Shown here piece by piece: positions 54 to 12,700 of a stretch of 12,947 nt of DNA (position 1 is its first letter; every line of letters begins with the position of its first letter). Location: NCBI GenBank assembly GCA_964549305.1, contig CAZJVM010000067.1, positions 1 to 12,947 on the forward strand, given 5' to 3'. Source of the stretch: an uncultured bacterium (GTDB lineage Bacteria; Schekmanbacteria; GWA2-38-11; J061). The notes under the pieces were generated by a model that ran no database searches, was not told where the DNA came from, and saw only the letters and a list, made by a program, of their open reading frames with translations. A program made the position numbers and the translations under genes.

Positions 54-2804
54 ATGAAAATCAGGGGAGCAAGAGTAAATAATCTCAGGAACATTTCCTG
101 CACTGTGCCTGATGGCAAAATAACGGTAATAACGGGTCTTTCCGGTTCGGGGAAATCCTCGCTTGCCTTTGATACCATATTCGCCGAAGGACAACGCCGC
201 TATGTTGACTGTCTTTCGACCTATGCAAGGCAGTTTATCGAGAAGATGAAAAAGCCCGATGTAGATGAAATAACGGGAGTTCAGCCGGCAATCGCTGTTG
301 AGCAGAAAAACACAGTTAGAAATTCCCGTTCGACGGTAGGAAGCTTAAGCGAAATAAATGATTATCTGAAGCTTCTCTTCTCAAGGTGCGGCGTTACGGT
401 TTGTCCACGGTGTAATGTTGAAGCACGGAAGTTTTCTCCTCAAAGTCTCTCCGATTATCTACTTGCCGGTTTCGGGGGCACAAATGCCGTTTCTTTCATT
501 CCGCTATTGTCAAGTGACTTCGAAGACGGCGAAGAGGCGCGCAGACGCATAGAGGAAAAAGGGTTTACGCGTGTTATTGCGGGCGGAAAAGTAGTGTATA
601 TCGATGAGATTGAAGCGGATGCGCTGAAATCAGGCGACATGATATATGTCGTTTCCGACAGGTTTGATATTTGCTTCGGGAAACGAAAGAGAATAGTTGA
701 AAGCATCGAGTCGGCAGAAGTGTTTGAAAGCGATGAGTGGGGAATAATGACGGAAGACTCGAAGGTTAAAATATTTACTTTTGCATTTGCCTGTCCCGAA
801 TGCGGGGAAAAATTTGATAAATTGTCACCGGCGCATTTCTCTTCTAATTCACCGGCAGGTGCCTGCGACTCCTGCCATGGTTTCGGAAGAGTCATTGATT
901 ACGACATTGACAAGATAATTCCCGACAAAACCCTCCCTTTTAACAAAGGTGCCGTCGCGCCGTGGAATTCCCCCGCCTATGAGGAGTTTTACATTCCTTT
1001 AAGGCGTGAATTTTTAAACAAAGGCATTTCATTCTCATCATCCTTCAATGACCTTTCTCCCGAAGACAGAAAACTGCTTATCGACGGCAATGATGATTTT
1101 TGGGGAATAAAGGGGTTTTTCGCCTATCTCGAAGAACGAAGATACAAGATGCATATTCGGGTTTTGCTTTCGAAATACAGAATGTACAGGCGGTGTCCGG
1201 AATGCCGCGGAAGCAGACTGAAGAGAAAATCACTGGAAGTAAAAATTCTCGGGAAAAATATATTTGAGATTCAGACAATGCCGGTACGGACGCTTGGTGA
1301 TTTTTTCAATTCCTCATCATTTGACGGCGAATGCTTCAAATCCGGCGAGGTCGTATTGAGGGAGGTAAGAAGCAGGGTAGGGTATCTTCTCGATGTGGGG
1401 CTTGGATATCTGACTCTTGACAGGCAGGCAAGGACATTGAGCGGTGGAGAGATGCAGAGGATAAACCTGTCAAAAGCTCTTGGCTCCCTTCTTACGGAAA
1501 CCTTGTATGTCCTCGATGAGCCTACGGTAGGACTTCATCCGCGCGATACGGACAAGTTGAAAGGCGTGCTTTCCGCTTTAAGCGGACGAGGTAATACTGT
1601 TGTCATAGTCGAGCACGATGAATCGGTGATAAAAATGGCCGGACATATAATTGACCTTGGTCCAGGCGCAGGTGAAAAGGGAGGCGAGGTTGTTTTTGAG
1701 GGGACTTTCGATGAATTGAAAGAAGATAAAAAATCCGTAACCGCGAAATACATAGATATGCCTCCGTCATTTGCCAGGAGGAATGTGATAAACAAATCGA
1801 AAGAAGCGATTGTCGTGCGGGCAGCGAGGAGAAATAACATCAGGGGAGAGGATTTCAGGGTTCCGCTTGGCAGATTTTCCTGCGTTACGGGAGTTTCAGG
1901 TTCGGGGAAGTCAACATTTATGAAGGGAATACTGTATCCCGCGCTGAAAGCGGTCAAAGAAGGAAAGCCAAACGGTAAAAAACACTGCGCCAAAATTGAT
2001 GGCAGTGAATACATCGATGACGTAATTCTCATTGACCAGTCTCCGCCGGCAAAATCGAAGCGTTCCAATCCCGTGACTTATGTTAAGGCATACAATGAAA
2101 TAAGGAAAATAATGGCGGATTGCAGAGTTGCGCGTATCGAGGGAGTGACGGAAAGCCATTTTTCCTTTAACGCGGGCGAGGGAAGGTGTCCCAGGTGCGC
2201 GGGTTTGGGATTTGAAAGAATCGAGATGCAGTTTCTGGCGGATATCGATATGGTCTGCGAGGAGTGTGAGGGCAGACGTTTTACGAAGAAGGTTTTGTCA
2301 GTAAAATACCGCGGGAAGAATATAGCGGAAATTCTCGATATGACAGTGAGCGAGGCGGAAATATTTTTTGAAGACTCTAAAAAGGTATTAAGGAAACTTT
2401 CGTTTTTATCTGATATGGGACTTGGATATCTTCGTCTTGGGCAGAGGACATCCACACTGAGCGGAGGAGAGGCACAACGCCTTAAACTTGCCGGTATGCT
2501 TGCTGAGCAGAAAAAATCGTCGAAATATCTTTTTCTCTTCGATGAACCCACTACGGGACTTCATATGGCGGACATCGAAAACCTCGTAGTTGTATTCAGA
2601 AGAATGGTCAGTCAGGGACATTCAGTGCTTGCTGTGGAGCATAACCCCGATTTTATTCTTCAGTGCGATTATGTTATAGATATGGGACCAGAAGGAGGCG
2701 ATGGGGGAGGAAAAATTGTGTGCCAGGGAAGCATTGATGATATAATTGTCTGCGGAAGGTCGCATACAGGAAGATATCTTGTGGAAAGGTTGAATTTTTA
2801 CTAA
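54..2804 (+). CDS. uvrA: Excinuclease ABC subunit A (UvrA), probably a second-copy/UvrA2-type paralog
   Basis: 916 aa. N-terminal [12 protein letters not shown], two Walker A motifs ([18 protein letters not shown]), two ABC signatures ([16 protein letters not shown]), Walker B motifs ([22 protein letters not shown]), CxxC zinc modules (CPRC/CPEC, CDSC/CPEC, CPRC/CEEC), EGQRRYV and EMQFL hairpin. AGGAG at 39-43 precedes ATG 54. Confidence 0.97.
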
Positions 2805-2859
2805 CTTTTTTTTAGCTTATGAAACTTGTGTGAAAAGTTATATATTGACTCTGATTGAT

Positions 2860-3879
2860 ATGAGGAATTTTTTAAAAATACAGATAATTGCCGTTATTTT
2901 GCTGATTTTTCCACTCCTGTCAGTATACGCGGAAAACAAAGACGGTTCGAATTCGGGAAAAAAGGTAAACGATACAATAGCGGAACTTCTTACCATAAAT
3001 ATTGACGGCACCGGACTCACGCGACTTACCTTCAACAGTTATTATGAAAACCACGCTCACGTTTCTCCAGACGGGACGAAGATACTTTTTACTGTTTTTA
3101 CGAAAGATACAAACGGCACCGGAGTGGGCGAAGACGATATGAATGCTTCTGAAATAGGAATAATGGATATTGACGGCAGTAATTATACTTTGCTTACAGA
3201 TAATGATTACGCCGATTTCGGCGCGGTGTGGAGTCCTGACGGGGGAAGCATAATATTTTCCACAAACCGTCATAAAAAGCAGTTTGACATTGCTACGATA
3301 AATATCGACGGCAGTGGTTTTACCCGCCTTACTTCCACAAAAAAACGCTATGAAATGGACCCTCACCGGATAGGCGATATAATAGTGTTTACAAAGTGGA
3401 ATCCATACAAAAAATCAAATGTAAAAATCTGGAAAATGAACAGTGACGGAAGCAATAAGAAAAGATTGACGTATCCAAAGTTAAAAAAGACAATCGAGGG
3501 AACACCCCTGGGGGATATGGATCCTAAAATTTCACCTGACGGAACGATGGTCGCTTTTGAAAGGCATAAAAATAACAAGAGAAACCACGGTCTTGGCAAA
3601 TATGATATCTATACAATCAACATTGACGGCACCGGACTCAGGAAAATCACGGGGAGAAAGTCCGCTGAAGCAGTGCCGACCTGGTCGCCTGACGGAAGCA
3701 AGCTGACCTATTGGTCGGTAAACAATAAAACGTTCAATGCGTTCGGAATTTTTATAATTAACACAGACGGCAGTGGACGGGTTAAAATATCCAAGGGGCT
3801 TTTCCCCCTTTACGTGGAAATGCCAAGCTGGATAGATGAAGACACTTTAATCTTCAGCGGAAAATCTCCGGAATGGTAG
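2860..3879 (+). CDS. Secreted TolB-like (PD40-repeat) six-bladed beta-propeller protein
   Basis: Signal-peptide-like N-terminus from ATG 2860 (MRNFLKIQIIAVILLIFPLLSVYA); the ORF track starts at GTG 2830. Repeated (W/V/I)SPDG..I.F motifs and six repeats of type INIDGTGLTRLT, MDIDGSNYTLLT, INIDGSGFTRLT, MNSDGSNKKRLT, INIDGTGLRKIT, INTDGSGRVKIS. No TolB N-terminal domain and no tol-pal neighbours, so not true TolB. Confidence 0.88.
   Translation: MRNFLKIQIIAVILLIFPLLSVYAENKDGSNSGKKVNDTIAELLTINIDGTGLTRLTFNSYYENHAHVSPDGTKILFTVFTKDTNGTGVGEDDMNASEIGIMDIDGSNYTLLTDNDYADFGAVWSPDGGSIIFSTNRHKKQFDIATINIDGSGFTRLTSTKKRYEMDPHRIGDIIVFTKWNPYKKSNVKIWKMNSDGSNKKRLTYPKLKKTIEGTPLGDMDPKISPDGTMVAFERHKNNKRNHGLGKYDIYTINIDGTGLRKITGRKSAEAVPTWSPDGSKLTYWSVNNKTFNAFGIFIINTDGSGRVKISKGLFPLYVEMPSWIDEDTLIFSGKSPEW
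3001..3640 (+). repeat. Intragenic 19-nt exact direct repeat ATTGACGGCACCGGACTCA (3001-3019 and 3622-3640)
   Basis: Read directly; both copies encode IDGTGL in two propeller repeats. Confidence 0.85.
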
Positions 3880-3926
3880 CGCCAAAAATAAAAGGGAAGC
3901 TTTTCAAATAGGGAAGGGGAAAGTGA

Positions 3927-4340
3927 ATGAAATCCTATAACGAATACCTTACATTCAATACTGAAAAAAAACTGGAACTTGTGAATATAACCGCGGATGT
4001 TGAAAAAGCGATTCATAAAAGCGCGATTAAGGAAGGTATGGCGCTTGTTTCGGCAATGCACATAACGGCAGGGGTTTTTATAAACGATGAGGAGTCGGGA
4101 ATAAAAAAGGATATAGAGGAATGGCTTCAAAAGCTTGCTCCTGACGGACCCGATTACCGCCATCACAGGACAGGCGAAGTCAACGGAGATTCACATCTTA
4201 AAAGTCTTCTCATCGGAAATCAGGTCATCATACCTGTAACAAACGGCAAAGCGGACTTCGGTCCCTGGCAACAGGTTTTTTACGCGGAGTTTGACGGCAG
4301 GAGAAATAAACGGCTTCTGATAAAAGTAATCGGTGAATGA
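3927..4340 (+). CDS. yjbQ: YjbQ/UPF0047 family protein (secondary thiamine-phosphate synthase enzyme)
   Basis: 137 aa with NIT..V, MHITAGVFINDEE, YRHH..GE.NGDSHLKS, GPWQQVFYAEFDGRR motifs typical of UPF0047. Purine-rich RBS (GGGAAGGGG) upstream. Confidence 0.95.
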   Translation: MKSYNEYLTFNTEKKLELVNITADVEKAIHKSAIKEGMALVSAMHITAGVFINDEESGIKKDIEEWLQKLAPDGPDYRHHRTGEVNGDSHLKSLLIGNQVIIPVTNGKADFGPWQQVFYAEFDGRRNKRLLIKVIGE

Positions 4341-4347
4341 TGTTTTT

Positions 4348-4941
4348 CTACTTATTGGTCAATGCGGCATAGATTGCCCTGGCGAAATCCTTTGAAGCAT
4401 AAGGTCCGTCGGCAGTGATGATATTTCCGTCAACGACTACCGGTTTGTCAACATACCTGGCTTTTCCTTTTTTAAGAAATATTGTGGCGCTGTTAAACAC
4501 TGTTGCCGATTTTCCCTTGAGAATCCCCGCATTGGCAAGTGTAACGGGGGCAAGGCATATTGCGGCAATGATTTTTTTTGAGCTGTTTGCTTCCCTCGCA
4601 AAGGCGTACACTCTCTTATCGCTGTAGTATTGGCTTGCGCCTATTCCTCCTACAAGGATTAGAGCGTCATATTTTTTCATATCAACTTCATCGATTGTTA
4701 TGTCCGGAGTTACCTCTTTGCCGAACATTCCCCGCGCCGTGGATTTTGAACTGCAGGCAACAGTAACGGAAATACCCTTTGACTCAAGGAATTCTCTGGG
4801 GACAAACAGTTCTTCGTCACGGAAATTATTTTGGGCGATAATCATTACTACGGCAAGTTTTTGCTCCTGCGCGAAAGAAAAGGGAATTACAAATGTGGAA
4901 AAAATAATCAGAAAGGCAAGGAGAAGTATCATCTTTTTCAT
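4348..4941 (-). CDS. DJ-1/PfpI (ThiJ) family protein with N-terminal signal peptide
   Basis: 197 aa. NFRDEE (conserved Glu), YDALILVGG.GA, nucleophile elbow IAAICLAPVTLANAGILKGKSAT, VVVDGNIITADGP. N-terminus MKKMILLLAFLIIFSTFVIPFSFA-QEQ is Sec-like. SD AAGGAG upstream. Confidence 0.93.
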   Translation of the reverse strand: MKKMILLLAFLIIFSTFVIPFSFAQEQKLAVVMIIAQNNFRDEELFVPREFLESKGISVTVACSSKSTARGMFGKEVTPDITIDEVDMKKYDALILVGGIGASQYYSDKRVYAFAREANSSKKIIAAICLAPVTLANAGILKGKSATVFNSATIFLKKGKARYVDKPVVVDGNIITADGPYASKDFARAIYAALTNK

Positions 4942-6026: not shown

Positions 6027-6719
6027 ATGAGCGAAAAGATAATCGACCAGATTTTCAAGAAGGTCTCTCAGGTTACAAATCTCGAATTGATAGAGGAATA
6101 TAAAGACCTTGAAAGCTTTAAAGCGCTTGACGGCAGGGATGCCGGAAGTTTCAGGGGATATAAAAGCGATAAAATAGATAAATACTCCATTGCCGAAATT
6201 AATGTGGCGCCCGGAATGACCTATTTCAACACGGGACTGAAACCAAAAACCAATTACAATATCTCCACATTTGCCATTAACTATATGGAGATGCCGGAAA
6301 TTATCCAGTTTGATGTGGACCTCTATCCGGCAGTTGACCTTGTAGAGCATCAGGATTACATTGACAAATACTATGAGCAGTTGACGGATGTTTTTTTGGA
6401 GGCCAGAAATTCCGGGGATTTCAAGTGGAAACCTTCCGATTATTCGTGGGTGAGAGTCCGCACATCGCCTTATTTCTTTATGTCACCCATTGCCAGGGAC
6501 AAGGCGGAAGAGGTGCATAAACTGATTCACGCGTATCTCGATGTATGGCTTCAGATGTTTCAGGAAGAGAAACCCGTTTCCGATGACCGGGCGAAAGCAA
6601 TCGCGTACAGAAAAAAATGTATGGTCGAGGTTATGCGCGAAAAAGAGCCCGATAAAACGGTTATTCAAAAAGTATTCGGCAACGAGTTAACTGAAAAACT
6701 TGCTCACGCTATGATGTAG
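6027..6719 (+). CDS. Ferredoxin-dependent bilin reductase (FDBR; HY2/PebAB/PcyA/RCCR)-fold protein, copy 1
   Basis: 230 aa, the size expected for the family. Motifs in FDBR order: KSDKIDK, P...YNISTFAIN (cf. P...YDLP.FG.D), DVDLYPAVDLVEHQDYIDKYYEQL (cf. HY2/RCCR LDL.P.....DY...YY), WVR..TSPYF, AYLDVWLQM, REKEP...IQKVFG (cf. (E/K)DP...L...FG). Reference motifs recalled from memory. Confidence 0.8.
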   Translation: MSEKIIDQIFKKVSQVTNLELIEEYKDLESFKALDGRDAGSFRGYKSDKIDKYSIAEINVAPGMTYFNTGLKPKTNYNISTFAINYMEMPEIIQFDVDLYPAVDLVEHQDYIDKYYEQLTDVFLEARNSGDFKWKPSDYSWVRVRTSPYFFMSPIARDKAEEVHKLIHAYLDVWLQMFQEEKPVSDDRAKAIAYRKKCMVEVMREKEPDKTVIQKVFGNELTEKLAHAMM

Positions 6720-7341
6720 CGCCTTCAAGGGTTTTGCTTTTCTTCCACAGAAAATAGCATCCGATTGCCCAGATTATTCTCGATGATACATTGAGAGTCT
6801 GCTCGAGGAAAACCGCGTAGTTTGAAGTAAAGTCAAACTGCCTGCCTATGTAACCGAGACTGAATGTCATTAGTATATCGAGGATAAAGAATATTGTTGC
6901 GCCTGTTGCTTTTCTGCGTATTGACAGGAGAATCAGGCATATTGTCATCCCCAGACCCGCGAGTATCATCATTGGAAGAAAAATCTTTTTTGAAGAAGCC
7001 ATTCCGACAGCATTTAACTTTGTCATTTCTCCTCCGCCCTTTTTCAGAAGCACCATAAGAAGAACGAAAAAGATGATTAAGAAACCGATGCCCATTAGGG
7101 GAAACTGCACATCCGAAAGTATTCTGATGTCTTTATCTACAAGAGCAATCAGGAGTTTCCACGTTGCCTTGAGCGTGCCTGCCGTTACCACAAATACGGA
7201 TGCGACTATCATTGCAATATAATAACCGTTGTTTATTTCCTTCCTTATGCTGGCGATTATGAAATATATTCCAATGATGAAAACTATATTCGGGAGATAG
7301 TCATAAAGGGCAACTCCCAAAGAAACATCCGGTGCGCTCAT
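6709..7341 (-). CDS. Hypothetical integral membrane protein (~7 TM helices)
   Basis: 210 aa with about seven hydrophobic segments and polar residues in or next to them (DYLP, GTLKATWK, QFP, EQTLN). SD TAAGGAG overlaps the upstream stop, 9-nt gap to the preceding gene. Confidence 0.8.
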   Translation of the reverse strand: MSAPDVSLGVALYDYLPNIVFIIGIYFIIASIRKEINNGYYIAMIVASVFVVTAGTLKATWKLLIALVDKDIRILSDVQFPLMGIGFLIIFFVLLMVLLKKGGGEMTKLNAVGMASSKKIFLPMMILAGLGMTICLILLSIRRKATGATIFFILDILMTFSLGYIGRQFDFTSNYAVFLEQTLNVSSRIIWAIGCYFLWKKSKTLEGATS

Positions 7342-7350
7342 TTTTTCTCC

Positions 7351-8043
7351 TTATTTAAAAAGGTAAGGCAGTATTGAGTATTTTGCCGCGATGACTCCCC
7401 CTATATCCTGCAGAAAATGAAGTATGGCAAGTGGCCACATACTCCGTGTTTTGCGGTAGATTACGAGGTAGCCTATTGTTATGGGATATTGGAGAAACAT
7501 AAATATCTGGAAATAGGGAGATACCGGTTCCATCCCGAGAAGAAACTTTGTCCAGAAAATGACGTGAATGAGTCCTATGAATCCCCAGAAGAAAATGAGC
7601 CCAAGTCCGTGTCCTAAAATTTTGGTCCATTTTCCCTCGAAGCGGTTTGCAAAGGCATCATATATATAAACCCAGATTAACTGCTCTGTGAAAGCATTTA
7701 CAGTACACCAGACGAGAAGCGTGAATGCGAAACCTCCGAAAGTCGTTTCTTCTTCAGGTGTCAGCGGTGTAATGTATGCCGCGGAGGCAATCAGTATCAT
7801 CATAAGAACAAAGAGAAATACAAAAAGCGGAGTAATCAGCTTTTCCGGGAAGTTGTAATCGACGGTACCTCTTCGCCATTTTACCACGCCCCAGCAGATG
7901 CCGTAGTAGACGAGAATAGGAAGCAGTGCGCCCGATAAATCATAAAGCCCCTTGCACAAAAAAGGCAGTCCCGCGGTGATTGCAACAGCCAGAACAATAT
8001 CCAGATTTGTCGCTTTGAAATCAACTCCCGATACTTTTGCCAT
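7351..8043 (-). CDS. CPBP (CAAX protease/Abi, type II)-like intramembrane protein with degenerate motif 1
   Basis: 230 aa, multi-TM. NAFTEQLIWV at the position of EExxxR, FIGLIH at motif FxxxH, YRKTRSMWPLAILHFLQD at motif S.W..I..HxxxN/D. SD GGAGG upstream. Confidence 0.72.
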   Translation of the reverse strand: MAKVSGVDFKATNLDIVLAVAITAGLPFLCKGLYDLSGALLPILVYYGICWGVVKWRRGTVDYNFPEKLITPLFVFLFVLMMILIASAAYITPLTPEEETTFGGFAFTLLVWCTVNAFTEQLIWVYIYDAFANRFEGKWTKILGHGLGLIFFWGFIGLIHVIFWTKFLLGMEPVSPYFQIFMFLQYPITIGYLVIYRKTRSMWPLAILHFLQDIGGVIAAKYSILPYLFK

Positions 8044-8064
8044 TGTTTCCTCCAGTTATTATAA

Positions 8065-8772
8065 TTATATCATAGCGTCGGTGATTCTCTGAATGATGTT
8101 TTTATCTTCGAGGATTTTGTCAAAATATCTCGCTTTTCCCGGGTCGCCTTCCGCGGTGACTTTTCTTATCATTGATTTCCGTTTTTTAATGAGCCCGATT
8201 TCCGCTTTATCCGCAACAGGTGCTGAAGACTTATACAAATCAAGCCAGAGAAGCAGTCTTTTAAAACTCAGGTTTACGAAATCTTCGCAATCAGATTCGG
8301 GGCAAAGTCCTTTAACCCAGTAGGGCGACCTCATTGTCCTTGACCAGAAGAAGTCCGACTCAAGTGGTATTACCTGTTCAAAGGCGAGAAATTCGTCATA
8401 TGTTGCCTTGAGGGGCGTATAGTATTTGTCAAGGTAATCGTAATTTAAAACAGGGTCTTTTGTGCCGTAAAAATCAACATCCATATTTATGCCTTTGGGC
8501 GTTGAACTCAGGTTGCAGGCAAAGATGGGAATATCGTAATTATCCGCGGGTATGATGCTTATGCCGTTTATCTCAGCGCCGCTCATAGTGTAATTGCCGT
8601 AGGCAATCTTTTCGATTTTGTCCGATTTGAAATGCTTTACCTGACCGCTCAGAACAACCTCGCCGTTTTTTCCCTTTGCCTTGAAGTCCGTCAAATCCTC
8701 AAAAGGAAATATTTCCCCGACAGTCAACTCCTTACCGATTTCCTTAAATAACTTATCAAGATAATGTTTCAT
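8065..8772 (-). CDS. Ferredoxin-dependent bilin reductase (FDBR; HY2/PebAB/PcyA/RCCR)-fold protein, copy 2
   Basis: 235 aa. KSDKIEK, IIPADNYDIPIFACNL, DVDFYGTKDPVLNYDYLDKYYTPL, WSR.MRSPYW, LLLWLDLY, AEGDPG (cf. HY2/PebB (E/K)DP(G/A)). Colinear with 6027..6719. SD AGGGAG upstream. Confidence 0.82.
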   Translation of the reverse strand: MKHYLDKLFKEIGKELTVGEIFPFEDLTDFKAKGKNGEVVLSGQVKHFKSDKIEKIAYGNYTMSGAEINGISIIPADNYDIPIFACNLSSTPKGINMDVDFYGTKDPVLNYDYLDKYYTPLKATYDEFLAFEQVIPLESDFFWSRTMRSPYWVKGLCPESDCEDFVNLSFKRLLLWLDLYKSSAPVADKAEIGLIKKRKSMIRKVTAEGDPGKARYFDKILEDKNIIQRITDAMI

Positions 8773-8798
8773 TACGTTACTCCCTGTTTAACGATTTT

Positions 8799-10052
8799 TT
8801 AAAAAGAATCCTTCAGCGACATCTCATCGAGTTTTTCGATTTTTTTAAATAAATCCGGACGTTCGCTTTTTATTTTATCCTTCTTCTCAAGAAACGCGCC
8901 CCAAATGAGCTCGGGGGTCTTGTATTGGCTGAAAGTGCCGGGGAATATCCTGTCCTCTGCAAGGGAGAAAAGGTAGTCTATCTCATCATCGGTATATGTG
9001 GGAATCAGCGCGTATCCCTGTGCCACACGAAGGAATTTGTCTGAATTGAATTCAAATTCGGACATCCACCATTTTTCGTAATCGCCGAACCCGTTTTTGC
9101 CTTCAAATTCATCCATAACCGCTTTCGCGCCTCTGTATCCGCACATCATAGCGCCCTGAGTCTCCACTTCCACATAAGATGCGGCATCGCCGAGCGCGAT
9201 AGCATTGCCTTTGTATGGTTTTTTTAGAGATGTAAAAACTTTTATGGAACAACCCGTTTTCCTTACGATTGACGCGTTTTCAAAAATATTGGAAAGACGG
9301 CTTTTTTTTGTAAAACTTTCAAAGCTCTGGGCGTCACATACTAACTCCGTCACATCATCTTCGAGACCTATTCCCATAAAAACCGGAACATTGGAGAAAT
9401 AGTTTCTGCCGAAATGTCCTATCCACGAAGCATTGACATAATCCTTTACGCCTTTAAGCTCGTAAATCGTGGAAAGCGCTGTTGCAAAATACTTTCTCTC
9501 TTTGTTCAGTCCCAGAGTCTCGGAAATAATGGAATTAGCGCCGTCTGCAATGATTATTTTTTTGGCTTTTACCGTTTCTCTTTTTCTGTGTGATACAGTC
9601 TTTATTTCAACTTCGCTGCCGGAGTCTTTTGCGCCGTATGCAACCGTCTTATCTCTCATCTCAACGCCAAGGGAAGAGCACTCTTGCCATAAACTTTTTA
9701 AAAGTGCGCCCTTGTCAAATTTAAAGACTATTGGCTTCTTTGTCTCGGTATTTGAAAATGTGAGTTTGTGTCCCGATGGTGATATATAGAATTTGTCATA
9801 AACAGGTTTTATGATTCCGTTGTAGTGGACTCTGAATCCGTTTTCCGGAAAAATGAACTCACCCTTTTCGTAGTTTACGCTTTCCCCCATATATCCTTCA
9901 TCGAGGATAAGGTGCATACAACAGCAACGGGTGATGTTTCCTACATCGGCGCGTTTTTCGACGAGAATCGTCTTTACGCCCTTTGAGGCAAGCTCTCTGC
10001 CTGCGATTAATCCGGCGGGACCTCCGCCTATGATTGCAACATCATAAATCAT
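8799..10052 (-). CDS. FAD-dependent oxidoreductase, geranylgeranyl reductase/FixC family, copy B
   Basis: 417 aa. YDVAIIGGGPAG..A dinucleotide motif, LVEK, RC (here RCCC), IIIADGANS, LGDAAS, C-terminal TDDEIDYLF. Paralog of 10392..11666. Confidence 0.9.
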   Translation of the reverse strand: MIYDVAIIGGGPAGLIAGRELASKGVKTILVEKRADVGNITRCCCMHLILDEGYMGESVNYEKGEFIFPENGFRVHYNGIIKPVYDKFYISPSGHKLTFSNTETKKPIVFKFDKGALLKSLWQECSSLGVEMRDKTVAYGAKDSGSEVEIKTVSHRKRETVKAKKIIIADGANSIISETLGLNKERKYFATALSTIYELKGVKDYVNASWIGHFGRNYFSNVPVFMGIGLEDDVTELVCDAQSFESFTKKSRLSNIFENASIVRKTGCSIKVFTSLKKPYKGNAIALGDAASYVEVETQGAMMCGYRGAKAVMDEFEGKNGFGDYEKWWMSEFEFNSDKFLRVAQGYALIPTYTDDEIDYLFSLAEDRIFPGTFSQYKTPELIWGAFLEKKDKIKSERPDLFKKIEKLDEMSLKDSF

Positions 10053-10086
10053 ATTTCTGACCTGATAAACGGGATGTGCGCGTTAC

Positions 10087-10187
10087 GGCGAAATTCAAGA
10101 GATTTCGTCCGGAAGAAATAAAAAAATAGGGGTCGTTAAAGACAAAACGAATTTTGATTTCGGTTCCTCCCCCCTGCCTTTCCGGCA
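10087..10187 (-). promoter_or_regulatory. Structured intra-operon spacer: hairpins plus U-tract (partial terminator, attenuator or processing site)
   Basis: Inverted repeats at 10175-10187 (TGCC-N5-GGCA), 10133-10150 (TCGTT-N8-AACGA, extendable by AGGGG 10128-10132 / CCCCT 10171-10175) and 10089-10107 (CGAAAT-N7-ATTTCG). The A7 run at 10120-10126 is a U-tract on the mRNA just after the middle stem. Confidence 0.45.
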
Positions 10188-10209
10188 TTTAATAGAGCTA
10201 TATTTTTTC

Positions 10210-10380
10210 CTATTGCGAAATTGCTTTAACGGGGCACATATCTATGCAGGCGAGACATTCGATGCACGTTTCCTCGTCAATAACCGCGTTGTTTTCTTCC
10301 AGTTCAAGGGCGCCCTGAGTGCATGCGTCGATACAGCATCCGCAGGCGATACAGGTTTCATTATCTATCGTGATTGCCAT
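10210..10380 (-). CDS. 2[4Fe-4S] bacterial (clostridial-type) ferredoxin, 56 aa; absent from the ORF track
   Basis: Translated by hand: MAITIDNETCIACGCCIDACTQGALELEENNAVIDEETCIECLACIDMCPVKAISQ*. Two CxxCxxCxxxC motifs, acidic composition, SD AAGGA upstream, starts 11 nt after the stop of 10392..11666. Confidence 0.96.
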   Translation of the reverse strand: MAITIDNETCIACGCCIDACTQGALELEENNAVIDEETCIECLACIDMCPVKAISQ

Positions 10381-10391
10381 AATTTTATCCT

Positions 10392-11666
10392 TTAAAAAGT
10401 GCCTTTCAGAGTTACGCTGCTTCTTTTTTCGATTTTCGCGTAAAGCTCGGGTTTTTCCTTCTTAATTCTTTCGGGGTCCTGAAGGAATGCTTCCCACATA
10501 AGCTTAGGAGTTTTATATTGGCTGTAGGTTCCGGGCAATTCCATTGTCGAACCCAAAGCGAAGAGATAATCGAGCTCTTCGTCGGTGTATGTGGGAATAA
10601 GGGCATACCCCTGAGCAACCTGAAGAAAGTCCTCACCGTTAAATTCAAAGGACTCGAGCCACCATTTCGTGTATTCTTCAAAACCGTTTTTACCTTCGAA
10701 TTCATCTGCAAGCGCTTCGACTGCCCTGTACGCGCACATAAAAGCACCCTGAGTTTCAACTTCCACATATGCCGCTGAATCCGCGATTGCTATGAAGTTT
10801 CCTTTATAGGGTTTTTTCATTCCGGTGTATGCTTTTGCGGAGCATCCCGTTGAGCGGACGACCTTCGCTTTTTTAAAATCATCCGCAAGTCTTCCCTTTG
10901 TCATAAAATTTTTGCAGATTTCGGAGGGATAACAATTCTTTCCGCCCAAAGCCACGATTTCGACTATGCCTTCCTCGAGGGTTATTCCCATAAGTACCGC
11001 GGCATTGGAATAATAAGTCCTTCCGAAATGGCCTATCCACGACGCTTCGGGAAAATTCTCTACACCTTCGATTTCGAAAATCATTGCAAGTCCCGTGGCG
11101 AAATATGTCCTTCCTTCATTGAGACCAATTGCCTCTGAAATTCTCGAATTCACGCCGTCTGCTATTATCGCTTTCTTTGCCGTGATTTTGTCGTGTTTTT
11201 TCTTGCTTACGATATCTATTTCCACGCTGTTGCCAAGGTCTCTCGCGTTATATGCCGATGTTTCTCCCAGGAGAGTTACTCCTTTATTCGCGCATTCATT
11301 CCACAGGTCTTTTAAAAGAAGTCCCTTGTCAAACCTGTATGATATCGGTTTTCCGGTTTTTCTGTTTTGAAAGGTTAACTCGTTGCCTGAAGGCGAGCGA
11401 TAGATTTTTGTATTTACCGGTTTGATTTTTCCTTTGTAATCAACTTCAAAACCGGTTTTCGGAAATAACATTTTACCGTCTTTGTATTGAGCGTCATCTC
11501 CCATATATCCTTCGTCGAGGATAAAATTCATACAGCAACAGCGGGTAATTGTCTCAACATCTTTTCTTTTTTCAACGAGGACTGTCTTCAATCCCTTTTC
11601 AGCCGCCCGTTTTGCGGCCATAAGTCCCGCCGGTCCGGCGCCTATTATAGCAACATCGTAACTCAT
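10392..11666 (-). CDS. FAD-dependent oxidoreductase, geranylgeranyl reductase/FixC family, copy A
   Basis: 424 aa. YDVAIIGAGPAGLMAA, LVEK, ITRCCC, IIADGVNS, IADSAA (variant of GDAA), TDEELDYLF. ATGA overlap with the amidohydrolase stop (11663-11666) and SD AAGGAG. Confidence 0.9.
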   Translation of the reverse strand: MSYDVAIIGAGPAGLMAAKRAAEKGLKTVLVEKRKDVETITRCCCMNFILDEGYMGDDAQYKDGKMLFPKTGFEVDYKGKIKPVNTKIYRSPSGNELTFQNRKTGKPISYRFDKGLLLKDLWNECANKGVTLLGETSAYNARDLGNSVEIDIVSKKKHDKITAKKAIIADGVNSRISEAIGLNEGRTYFATGLAMIFEIEGVENFPEASWIGHFGRTYYSNAAVLMGITLEEGIVEIVALGGKNCYPSEICKNFMTKGRLADDFKKAKVVRSTGCSAKAYTGMKKPYKGNFIAIADSAAYVEVETQGAFMCAYRAVEALADEFEGKNGFEEYTKWWLESFEFNGEDFLQVAQGYALIPTYTDEELDYLFALGSTMELPGTYSQYKTPKLMWEAFLQDPERIKKEKPELYAKIEKRSSVTLKGTF

Positions 11667-12700
11667 TTCTTCTCCTTGTTTTTAGCCGCCTGTTTGTCCC
11701 TCCAGTCACCGCAGTAGAAATTATAAGCATTGTCAAAAAGAAGCATTTTCTTGAATTGCGGTGAAATGGGAAGAAGTTTAATGTACTCGAGAGCGGTTTT
11801 GTAAATGGGTAAAATCAGGGGAGAATCAGTGCCAAAAAATACTTTATGAGGAACAATCTGCTCTAACATTCTTATATGGTCAAGGTTCATATAATAGTTG
11901 AATTGCATCAGCATTGGATGAGGCACGGTTATGTCGGTGTATACATTCGGATGCCTGATTACATTCCATATGGCAAGTCTCGGATTGTTCATCGCTCCGC
12001 AGTGAAGCTGAAGTATTCTTAAATCCGGGAAATCCACCGCAACATCATCGATGTAAACGGGGTCCTGATACTTCGCCCTTGTGCCGGGAATTTCTTCCAC
12101 TCCCGTATGGATTTCAACGTGAAGTCCCAGTTCCACGCATTTTTCGTAAATGGGATAGCATCTTTCCCTGTCATTCGGATATCCCGCCGTAGGCGTGTGA
12201 ATCTTTACTCCCTTGAATCCAAGTTCTTTTGCCTTGTGCACTGTTTCGATCTTTTGGCTCAACTCAGCTTTCGGATTCACTCCGGCGGTCCCAACATACC
12301 GGTTCGGGTATTTGTCGAGGAATTCCTCCTTTACATATTCCATAGGCACGTGCCAGTAATCATTGTAGGGCGGGTCTGAAATGGTGTCCATTCCCGTTAC
12401 CAGCGCCATTTGGACACCGGCATCATTGAAAATATTAATCATCGTTTCGACGCTGAAGTCAGGGATGTCTTCAACCTTTGTGATCGGTTTCACGGGGTCA
12501 GGGTCTCCGAGCATAACGCGAAGCGCCATCTGAGTCTGTGAAGTTACACCGTCTCTTGCCATCCAAAGGCGACTGCAACCGGGTCTTTTCTCGATGTCTT
12601 TTTTCTCGAATCCCGCGTGTGTGTGGCTGTCAAAAACCTTTAATCCCATCTTCGGCGGGGGTTGTACATTCCCATCTACAGGCGAATTGCTGTTCGGCAT
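11663..12700 (-). CDS. Amidohydrolase_2 family metal-dependent TIM-barrel protein
   Basis: 345 aa. FDSHTH (HxH), KYPNRYVG, GFKGVKIH, YPIYEKC.ELGL.VEIHTG, DDVAVDFPDLRI..LHCG, HPNVYTDI, KVFFGTDSP, L.DNA. SD AAAGGAG upstream. Confidence 0.94.
   Translation of the reverse strand: MPNSNSPVDGNVQPPPKMGLKVFDSHTHAGFEKKDIEKRPGCSRLWMARDGVTSQTQMALRVMLGDPDPVKPITKVEDIPDFSVETMINIFNDAGVQMALVTGMDTISDPPYNDYWHVPMEYVKEEFLDKYPNRYVGTAGVNPKAELSQKIETVHKAKELGFKGVKIHTPTAGYPNDRERCYPIYEKCVELGLHVEIHTGVEEIPGTRAKYQDPVYIDDVAVDFPDLRILQLHCGAMNNPRLAIWNVIRHPNVYTDITVPHPMLMQFNYYMNLDHIRMLEQIVPHKVFFGTDSPLILPIYKTALEYIKLLPISPQFKKMLLFDNAYNFYCGDWRDKQAAKNKEKK

Follow-up and report, generated by a model that had tools for sequence, protein, structure and literature searches.

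The 12,947-nt contig CAZJVM010000067.1 (assembly GCA_964549305.1), which comes from an uncultured bacterium of the Schekmanbacteria and is referred to in its entirety as the window, contains a compact gene cluster. Two of its proteins, A and B, have the fold of the ferredoxin-dependent bilin reductases (FDBRs) and of red chlorophyll catabolite reductase (RCCR); they are encoded together with a small ferredoxin, two flavoproteins of the geranylgeranyl reductase (GGR) superfamily, an amidohydrolase and two membrane proteins (Table 1). Seven of these genes form a run on the minus strand from 12700 to 6709, with gaps of -4, 11, 157, 26, 21 and 9 nt between them. The gene for A is a separate transcription unit on the opposite strand, and its 3' end overlaps the last gene of the run (6709-7341) by 11 nt in convergent orientation. 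A purine-rich Shine-Dalgarno (SD) stretch of the GGAG/AGGA type precedes seven of the eight starts, the gene for the 417-aa flavoprotein being the only one with a weak stretch, and the GC content is even over the region (0.39-0.47). The coordinates, gene order, gaps and mostly clear SDs given in an earlier, sequence-only reading of this DNA, along with the second FDBR-fold gene that it placed at the end of the run, were all reproduced from the positions of the open reading frames (ORFs).

Table 1. Genes and features of the cluster, in the order of the minus-strand run, followed by the plus-strand gene and its divergent neighbour (aa, amino acids; pI, isoelectric point)
Feature	Position	Strand	Characteristics
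Amidohydrolase-2 hydrolase/decarboxylase, 345 aa, first of run	11663..12700	-	PF04909 116.3 bits (cut-off 26.4); strong SD
GGR-superfamily FAD flavoprotein 1, 424 aa	10392..11666	-	TIGR02032 65.8 bits (cut-off 158.8); 4-nt overlap with amidohydrolase gene
2x[4Fe-4S] clostridial-type ferredoxin, 56 aa, pI 4.05	10210..10380	-	Fer4 50.6 bits, FdxA_fam 45.9 bits
Intergenic gap, 157 nt	10053..10209	.	Between ferredoxin gene and flavoprotein 2
GGR-superfamily FAD flavoprotein 2, 417 aa	8799..10052	-	TIGR02032 87.8 bits (cut-off 158.8)
FDBR/RCCR-fold protein B, 235 aa	8065..8772	-	PF05996 27.4 bits (cut-off 31); PF06405 20.1 bits (cut-off 24.9)
Polytopic membrane protein, putatively CPBP/Rce1-like, 230 aa	7351..8043	-	PF02517 20 bits (cut-off 22.4)
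Polytopic membrane protein without known family, 210 aa, last of run	6709..7341	-	Several hydrophobic segments
FDBR/RCCR-fold protein A, 230 aa	6027..6719	+	PF05996 56.7 bits (cut-off 31); PF06405 23.7 bits (cut-off 24.9)
Atypical short-chain dehydrogenase/reductase (SDR; NAD_binding_10 / NDUFA9-like), 297 aa	5005..5898	-	PF13460 88.5 bits; divergent neighbour of A

Fold, active site and phylogenetic placement of proteins A and B

Both proteins had been expected to match either PF05996 (Fe_bilin_red) or PF06405. This proved correct for A, which exceeds the gathering cut-off of PF05996 while missing that of PF06405, but B falls below both. Furthermore, neither protein reached the NCBIfam equivalogs PcyA, PebA and PebB: the best score was 42 bits for A and 29.7 bits for B, where the cut-offs are 206-327. 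Over their full length, the two proteins share 29% identity (E 9e-27). AlphaFold2 models built from family alignments had a pLDDT of 86.2 and a pTM of 0.86 for A, and a pLDDT of 88.4 and a pTM of 0.88 for B. Foldseek searches of the PDB with these models returned 48 matches for A and 45 for B at E<=0.001, and those listed were exclusively HY2, PebB, RCCR, PcyA, PebA, PebS, coproporphyrinogen oxidase (CPO) and the PcyA-like subunit of the Ycf2-FtsHi motor. The top match of A was tomato HY2 (6kmd; query TM-score, TMq, 0.83), followed by PebB, RCCR and PcyA, and that of B was RCCR (TMq 0.73-0.82, with 0.82 to 3aga_B), followed by PebB (0.80) and HY2 (0.79). Profile-to-PDB alignments agree with Foldseek on the FDBR/RCCR fold for both proteins. 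On the strength of these models we are confident that A and B have the alpha/beta/alpha sandwich of the FDBRs, RCCR and CPO, as the sequence-only reading had proposed for the two proteins of about 230 aa; the outcome by which it would have been refuted, models lacking this fold, did not occur. Both models are also matched by two Chlamydomonas chains, 8xqw_H and 8xks_P, which are PcyA-like components of the Ycf2/Orf2971-FtsHi motor and in which the same fold serves a non-enzymatic use.

Catalytic positions were mapped through the profile-to-PDB alignments and a joint alignment of the A and B families. The position of PcyA Asp105 is occupied by Asn85 in A and Asn87 in B, in a column aligned with the central Asp of PebB and the central Glu154 of RCCR. 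The position of HY2 Asp256 and PebS Asp206 corresponds to Asp210-Pro211 in B and Glu207-Pro208 in A; across the two families, the Pro of this C-terminal acid-Pro motif is invariant and the acid nearly so. Asp98, in the FDVDLYP strand, is likewise invariant or nearly so in both families, and the A family conserves Asn68, Asn85, Asp96, Asp98 and Glu207-Pro208. Thus, A and B retain one of the two canonical proton-donor positions. The Asn at the central position does not exclude activity, because land-plant HY2 has Asn there too (Table 2 of PMC13446030; this and the other papers are cited for the sections that bear on these enzymes). Similarly, the residue pattern of A and B fits activity because Pre-1 enzymes, which lack the PcyA triad, reduce biliverdin (PMC13446030). 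As aligned, the active sites of A and B appear compatible with activity, which is short of proof.

Counting the window protein in each case, there were 36 A-type homologues among 127 candidates and 10 B-type homologues among 197. Almost all are metagenomic, the named ones belonging to metagenome-assembled genomes (MAGs) of Candidatus (Ca.) Schekmanbacteria and 'Deltaproteobacteria', and for A, B and flavoprotein 2 alike the best homologue with a name is a Ca. Schekmanbacteria MAG protein. In 1.84 billion representatives, an FDBR-like profile had 287 matches with E<=1e-3, of which 21 had E<=1e-30; among the matches listed there were 147 new proteins, of which 113 (195-350 aa) were kept and 34 were dropped for length. 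A curated PebA or PebB cut-off was reached by just three of these 113 full-length relatives. FastTree was run on 120 rows, made up of 107 of the 113 relatives and 13 window, locus or family rows, leaving out six fragmentary or chimeric rows (P0213, P0238, P0272, P0277, P0280 and P0311), and a quick IQ-TREE tree was made from a hand-picked subset of 55 rows. In the latter, one side of a branch with an SH-aLRT support of 91 holds A, the uncharacterised proteins closest to it, B and an RCCR-like clade, and FastTree gave the same topology with support of 83-87, both trees being unrooted and without a CPO outgroup. PF06405 is passed by 22 of the 23 proteins in the neighbouring RCCR-like clade, and the opposite side of the branch holds the canonical FDBRs and another uncharacterised clade. 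In both trees, A and B form distinct lineages and are not sisters. They are not orthologues of PcyA, PebA, PebB or HY2, and in these unrooted trees they appear on the RCCR-like side. A further protein, P0227 (2354 aa), matched a 29-position piece of the FDBR-like profile (positions 60-88) 13 times, and these matches probably represent a beta-hairpin-like repeat unit unrelated to the enzyme family.

FDBR/RCCR-like sequences of Schekmanbacteria were reportedly first noted in a 2017 paper. In the sections of PMC10151467 (Rockwell and Lagarias) that deal with them, Ca. Schekmanbacteria sequences lie 'between FDBRs and RCCRs' and 'clearly fall within the outgroup', and they are assigned neither a function nor a gene context. 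The RCCR-side placement of A and B fits this outgroup placement, and the two proteins are probably of the same lineage, whose A-type and B-type paralogues are not separated in those sections and whose gene context and active-site pattern are described here. Later papers mention uncharacterised, unplaced lineages in the relevant passages (PMC13193486; PMC13446030, section 2.2). We found no paper on a gene set of bilin reductase, GGR, ferredoxin and amidohydrolase, although published supplementary trees may already hold these sequences, and a literature search on bacterial RCCR homologues gave nothing relevant among the papers listed. The suggestion of an undescribed system therefore survives for the gene set but not for the FDBR-like lineage, which PMC10151467 had already mentioned.

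Ferredoxin, flavoproteins and the recurrence of their genes

The ferredoxin contains two complete CxxCxxCxxxC motifs (Cys 10, 13, 16 and 20, and Cys 39, 42, 45 and 49) in addition to Cys15, so that the 2[4Fe-4S] protein claimed at the outset is borne out by a Fer4 dicluster domain with eight canonical Cys. In three of the 113 full-length relatives (P0187, P0191 and P0213), a 2x[4Fe-4S] domain is fused to the N-terminus of the FDBR-like domain, and both cluster motifs are complete in two of these fusions. The fused ferredoxin domains are 29-35% identical to the window ferredoxin, and P0187 shares 31% identity with B in its FDBR-like portion. We found no mention of such fusions in the sections of the literature examined. 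To judge by their domain architecture, they show that bacterial-type ferredoxins would serve FDBR-like proteins in the wider group, and by analogy a ferredoxin link is plausible for A and B of this cluster. The clade of the fusions also contains the second FDBR-like paralogue of locus L002, described below. As for the flavoproteins, the statement in the sequence-only reading that a Methanosarcina GGR is reported to use a neighbouring ferredoxin was confirmed by a review, in which the GGR of M. acetivorans is stated to require the ferredoxin encoded beside it (PMC10821996).

Flavoproteins 1 and 2 are 57% identical, and the best NCBIfam match of both is TIGR02032 (GG-red-SF), below its cut-off. 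Among solved structures, the Thermoplasma GGR 3oz2 comes nearest, and the family profile of flavoprotein 2 aligns with it over the full length, at positions 4-380 (E 2e-13). The motifs of GGRs are GxGxxG, an FAD-proximal Cys (Cys47 of the archaeal enzymes) and PxxYxWxFP (PMC10821996). In the window proteins, GxGxxG is found at 9-14 (GGGPAG/GAGPAG), and RCCCM at 42-46 is aligned to RCGE of 3oz2, with Arg42 and Cys44 invariant in 28 aligned family sequences. The PxxYxWxFP cavity motif is missing, the region reading NASWIGHFG in both paralogues and PxSWxxxxG in the family consensus, and the family has a strongly conserved C-terminal region of its own. Membership of the GGR family, as originally claimed, thus holds at the level of the superfamily (3oz2) but not for the TIGR02032 cut-off or the cavity motif, and we have filed the flavoproteins as predicted GGR-like C=C reductases and not as GGR proper. 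Flavoprotein 2 has 405 homologues at E<=1e-3 (6,784 candidates), cultured Clostridia included, and the members from Ruminiclostridium and Clostridium butyricum are 45-50% identical to it. In a plasmid collection, tblastn gave no match to flavoprotein 2, whether E was set to 1e-20 or 1e-5. A row of three Cys occurs in both flavoproteins (RCCCM, 42-46). Of the Cys residues, Cys44 and Cys268 do not vary among the 28 members and Cys125 and Cys304 occur in at least 90% of them; these four might be ligands of a metal or an Fe-S cluster. An identity as FixC was rejected, as 7koe_C is matched by the first 36 residues alone.

A genome scan for homologues of A gave five loci (L001-L005, 47-53% identity), from four Thermodesulfobacteriota MAGs and one further bacterium, which were compared with the window by tblastn and Pfam. 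L004 contains an NmrA-type SDR, the A homologue (53%) and, at the contig end, a convergent flavoprotein fragment that is 59% identical to flavoprotein 2. In L001, a PNPOx-like protein and then an SDR come after the A homologue, a second PNPOx-like gene lies on the other flank, and a GGR-like gene 27% identical to that of the window is found 6.6 kb from the A homologue. Further contigs were assessed by comparing the homologue lists by eye and reading co-location from equal contig sizes, with 120 of the 405 flavoprotein matches listed. By this equal-size comparison, a 39,282-bp contig holds relatives of A and B, each at 81% identity, together with one of flavoprotein 2 at 79%, a 4,105-bp contig those of A and B, and a 4,548-bp contig those of B and a flavoprotein. 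Four contigs with A homologues (76,260, 23,996, 16,526 and 10,039 bp) had no flavoprotein among the matches listed. The arrangement thus recurs only on contigs of close relatives (75-81% identity); beyond these, the link between A and the flavoprotein recurs once, in L004. Conserved synteny, which the sequence-only reading had proposed to look for, is thin and is seen on the close-relative contigs, clearly in L004 and loosely in L001, but not in the other three of the five loci.

The five loci also gave several side observations. In L001, an operon on the minus strand (6908-10615), 4.2 kb from the A homologue, encodes a GGR-like flavoprotein, a 149-aa polyferredoxin and an aldehyde:ferredoxin oxidoreductase (AFOR). 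We take this operon to resemble the three-subunit AorABC enzymes, and an AFOR gene is present in L004 too. The GGR-like protein of L001 was considered as a subunit of a solved AFOR complex and rejected, since there was no such PDB match and the best match was to the N-terminal FAD motif of FixC. L002 (5960-7654, plus strand) has tandem FDBR-like genes, one A-type and the other of the ferredoxin-fusion clade, with a PNPOx-like gene nearby. A relation of the PNPOx-like neighbours in L001 and L002 to heme or biliverdin was rejected, as the PDB yielded uncharacterised flavin-binding proteins or nothing. In L003 (3139-4764, minus strand) and L005 (217-1854, minus strand), orthologous GAF sigma-54 activators (61% identity) are divergent from the adjoining A homologue, and they could regulate its gene or sense the product. 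Finally, P0273 (826 aa) contains an RCCR-like region (~98-279) and a C-terminal NAD_binding_10 SDR domain in one protein, which recalls the SDR genes adjoining A homologues in the window, L001 and L004.

A possible ferredoxin-driven reductive module

The folds and domain identities of these proteins, the tight packing of their genes and the partial recurrence of the arrangement suggest a ferredoxin-driven multi-reductase module that acts on a tetrapyrrole-derived or similar conjugated substrate. We put this reading forward tentatively, as one that is quite possible but still short of probable, and its unity as a pathway, the order of the steps and the substrate are what we infer. In such a module, the 56-aa 2x[4Fe-4S] ferredoxin would carry low-potential electrons and pass them both to A and B, which would be cofactor-less, and to the two paralogous flavoproteins. 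Given the fusions of ferredoxin and FDBR-like domains in relatives, a shared ferredoxin is reasonable. The later steps are more conjectural. A and B would reduce conjugated C=C bonds by one-electron (radical-type) steps, with the C-terminal acid (Asp210 in B, Glu207 in A) donating a proton as in HY2 and PebB, and the flavoproteins would act on isolated or vinyl-type C=C bonds, saturating them with hydride from FAD, next to the conserved Cys44. The Amidohydro_2 enzyme might then hydrolyse or decarboxylate the reduced product; this role is pure conjecture, and so is the uptake or presentation that the sequence-only reading gave to the CPBP-like and 210-aa membrane proteins, for which we propose no specific step. 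A tetrapyrrole is favoured as the substrate class because all characterised members of the fold act on tetrapyrroles, and the likeliest substrate would be an imported bilin or an O2-independent breakdown product of heme or chlorophyll.

How would this module compare with known systems? RCCR, a ferredoxin-dependent, cofactor-less reductase of a linear tetrapyrrole, shares its fold with A and B and appears on their side of the unrooted trees. However, both proteins are below the PF06405 cut-off and have Asn aligned with the central Glu of RCCR, and RCCR is a plant enzyme that acts downstream of an O2-dependent oxygenase, of which there is no counterpart here. HY2 and PebB supply the best profile and structure matches (6kmd, 6qwq), the C-terminal acid-Pro is kept, and the central Asn is that of land-plant HY2; identities are nevertheless only 16-21%, the Asp116-type acid of HY2 is missing in A and B, and the window has no heme oxygenase or phytochrome. 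The ferredoxin of the HY2 and PebB bilin reductases is of the plant-type [2Fe-2S] class, whereas the one associated here is 2x[4Fe-4S]. The pre-PcyA enzymes (Pre-1/2/3) offer a parallel in that an FDBR homologue of non-photosynthetic bacteria is encoded alongside an Fe-S protein, and their clusters, as described in PMC10151467, contain heme oxygenase and the Fe-S protein along with a pair of V4R proteins and a BBAG globin, or else with a B12-binding protein and a globin. Of these parts the Fe-S protein alone is present in the window, and in the unrooted trees A and B appear opposite the canonical FDBRs. A Pfam scan of 13 window proteins found no heme oxygenase, phytochrome, phycobiliprotein/globin, V4R, GAF or B12-binding domain, so the usual FDBR partner genes are indeed missing from the window, as the sequence-only reading had stated. 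The GGRs of M. acetivorans, other archaea and plants resemble the flavoproteins in the FAD fold, GxGxxG, the flavin-adjacent Cys and a neighbouring ferredoxin gene, but differ from them in TIGR02032 score, in PxxYxWxFP and in the C-terminal region, and the window has tandem paralogues in a bacterial host. Finally, ChuW and ChuY are an example of the O2-independent making, then reduction, of a linear tetrapyrrole (PMC10151467, in the section concerned), and the SDR beside A distantly matches biliverdin IX-beta reductase. There is, however, no radical-SAM ChuW-like gene in the window or the five loci, and the link is one of analogy alone.

Several results weigh against a single module. The gene for A, being on the opposite strand, is outside any transcript of the run, and no shared operator-like repeat connects the three promoter-candidate regions, whose common repeats amount to three 9-mers in AT-rich DNA, inverted repeats >=7 being absent. 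Among the five loci, only L004 has the same flavoprotein family beside A, L002, L003 and L005 have no GGR-like neighbour of the A homologue, and none of the five has a counterpart to the amidohydrolase, ferredoxin or membrane proteins by tblastn at E<=1e-5. No heme oxygenase, ChuW-like radical SAM protein, phytochrome or bilin-binding globin was found in the window or the five loci (54 ORFs). The longest contig with a B homologue (516,472 bp, Ca. Schekmanbacteria) has, by the equal-size comparison, no A match and no flavoprotein among the matches listed, and the same is true of 11,194- and 8,241-bp contigs with B homologues. The ferredoxin fusions belong to the uncharacterised clade on the canonical-FDBR side, apart from A and B, and, as aligned, both proteins have Asn in place of the central catalytic acid. 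Furthermore, the flavoproteins form a much broader family than A and B do (405 homologues, Clostridia at 45-50% included, against 36 for A and 10 for B, mostly in uncultured bacteria), and most of its members therefore presumably work without FDBR-like partners.

This breadth is what would be expected if two unrelated modules were merely adjacent, the chief alternative, which we consider somewhat unlikely. The amidohydrolase, flavoprotein 1, ferredoxin and flavoprotein 2 would then carry out a ferredoxin-dependent C=C saturation of an isoprenoid, quinone, lipid or aromatic-derived substrate, the same job as that of the Clostridia members, and A and B would have a separate tetrapyrrole-related task. 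The 157-nt gap that divides the run after the ferredoxin gene, the three loci with A homologues and no GGR-like neighbour, and a 25,380-bp Ca. Schekmanbacteria contig that has both flavoprotein paralogues (72% and 57%) and no A or B match are in keeping with such a division. However, the gene for B follows that of flavoprotein 2 by 26 nt on the same strand with its own SD, A and the flavoprotein are adjacent in L004 at only 53-59% identity, beyond close kin, and the ferredoxin fusions of relatives make a shared ferredoxin reasonable.

Two other readings concern A and B themselves. Like HY2, PcyA and pre-PcyA, they might be biosynthetic, not catabolic, and supply a sensor or some other apoprotein with a chromophore or cofactor in the form of a reduced, bilin-like molecule. 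All characterised FDBRs, including the pre-PcyA enzymes of heterotrophs, make chromophores according to the sections cited (PMC10151467; PMC13446030), and the pair of GAF sigma-54 activators beside the A homologues of L003 and L005 could be read in the same way, although these regulators may merely control the gene. We think this role quite improbable, as no heme oxygenase, BBAG globin, V4R protein, phytochrome or GAF protein is encoded in the window, matches to the sigma-54 promoter consensus there are not above chance (9 against 8.1 expected), and the hosts appear to be anaerobic, whereas the known route to biliverdin needs O2 (PMC10151467). Alternatively, A, B or both could be non-catalytic and bind a hydrophobic ligand or serve as a docking scaffold for the flavoproteins, which would do all of the chemistry. 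The central Asn, the score of B under the Pfam cut-off and the Foldseek matches to 8xqw_H and 8xks_P, where the fold is used outside bilin reduction, would be consistent with this. We nevertheless regard it as very improbable: land-plant HY2 is active with Asn at that site and Pre-1 reduces biliverdin without the triad (PMC13446030), the acid-Pro motif and Asp98 vary little or not at all in the two families, and the ferredoxin-fused relatives point to a redox function in the wider group.

If the multi-reductase module is real, what might it mean? One extension of it is that A and B represent an O2-independent branch of the FDBR/RCCR group in strict anaerobes, working with a clostridial-type 2x[4Fe-4S] ferredoxin and GGR-like flavoproteins to reduce linear tetrapyrroles or chlorophyll/heme catabolites and, with the amidohydrolase, to degrade them. 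This more specific proposal is, in our view, unlikely as it stands, and equally so is its corollary that the substrates are made without heme oxygenase or scavenged from cyanobacterial or algal debris. If true, it would be the first anaerobic pathway for bilins or chlorophyll catabolites, and a candidate for an ancestral, pre-oxygenic use of the fold. Every characterised enzyme with the FDBR/RCCR/CPO fold ultimately relies on O2-requiring steps, as far as the sections concerned describe them (PMC10151467), and the finding of an 'archae-FDBR' has been called interesting in PMC13446030; an O2-independent branch would be a candidate for it. In the evolution of bilins, where the fold came from is still an open question, and the cluster makes it directly testable, since it offers a concrete gene set of two FDBR-like proteins, a likely electron donor and candidate downstream enzymes. 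The lineage itself appears on the RCCR side of the unrooted trees, occurs in Ca. Schekmanbacteria-like and Thermodesulfobacteriota MAGs, and has an ancient-type ferredoxin and no nearby heme oxygenase. The cluster also draws attention to a large uncharacterised family of GGR-like flavoproteins (RCCCM, 405 homologues, some in Clostridia).

Accessory and neighbouring genes

The amidohydrolase, which belongs to no NCBIfam family, has as its closest solved relatives the uncharacterised Bordetella protein BB4693 (3irs, E 2.6e-11), the 5-carboxyvanillate decarboxylase LigW, ACMSD and 4-oxalomesaconate hydratase. The metal ligands of Amidohydro_2 enzymes follow the pattern HxH, His, His, Asp, and by this pattern they are intact: HxH is found at H26/H28, later His residues occur in KIHTP, EIHTG and LHCGA, and the Asp lies in GTDSP. 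A 17-residue N-terminal extension precedes a second in-frame Met, M18, just before HxH; the upstream start has the stronger SD, and the true start is uncertain.

The 230-aa membrane protein has several hydrophobic segments, and PF02517 is carried by 26 of its 30 Atlas feature matches. The consensus motifs of the CPBP/Rce1 group are EExxxR, FxxxH and HxxxD, and the window protein has, in their stead, TEQLIW, from which the Arg and the first of the two Glu are missing, LIHVIF and HFLQD. The 210-aa membrane protein belongs to none of the Pfam or NCBIfam families, and its Atlas matches at 0.95 are unnamed clusters of Bacillota membrane proteins; DUF6962 is present on 48% of the members of one Atlas cluster at 0.92.

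Signals in the DNA were few. The 157-nt gap is a possible internal promoter or processing site; Rfam gave no family match in the window, this gap included, and a scan of the window for terminator-like sites gave 9 against 7.6 expected, none within the gap. PADLOC found no defence family, its 15.6-bit match to the ferredoxin being at chance level, and a reading as a defence system was excluded.

Upstream of the cluster (54-4941), the genes look unrelated and encode UvrA, a TolB-like PD40 protein without a full TolB score, a YjbQ/UPF0047 protein and a DJ-1/PfpI protein. UvrA scores 969 bits against a cut-off of 1147 for NF001503, yet exceeds the cut-off of TIGR00630. On this side, only the atypical SDR divergent from A may connect to the cluster. 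Its best PDB match is NDUFA9 (E 1.6e-28), and biliverdin IX-beta reductase (1hdo) is matched at E 7e-10. The NmrA-type SDR directly upstream of the A homologue in L004 is 28% identical to it, and in L001 the second gene downstream of the A homologue encodes an adh_short SDR, so that from its gene neighbourhood the SDR is a possible associate of A.

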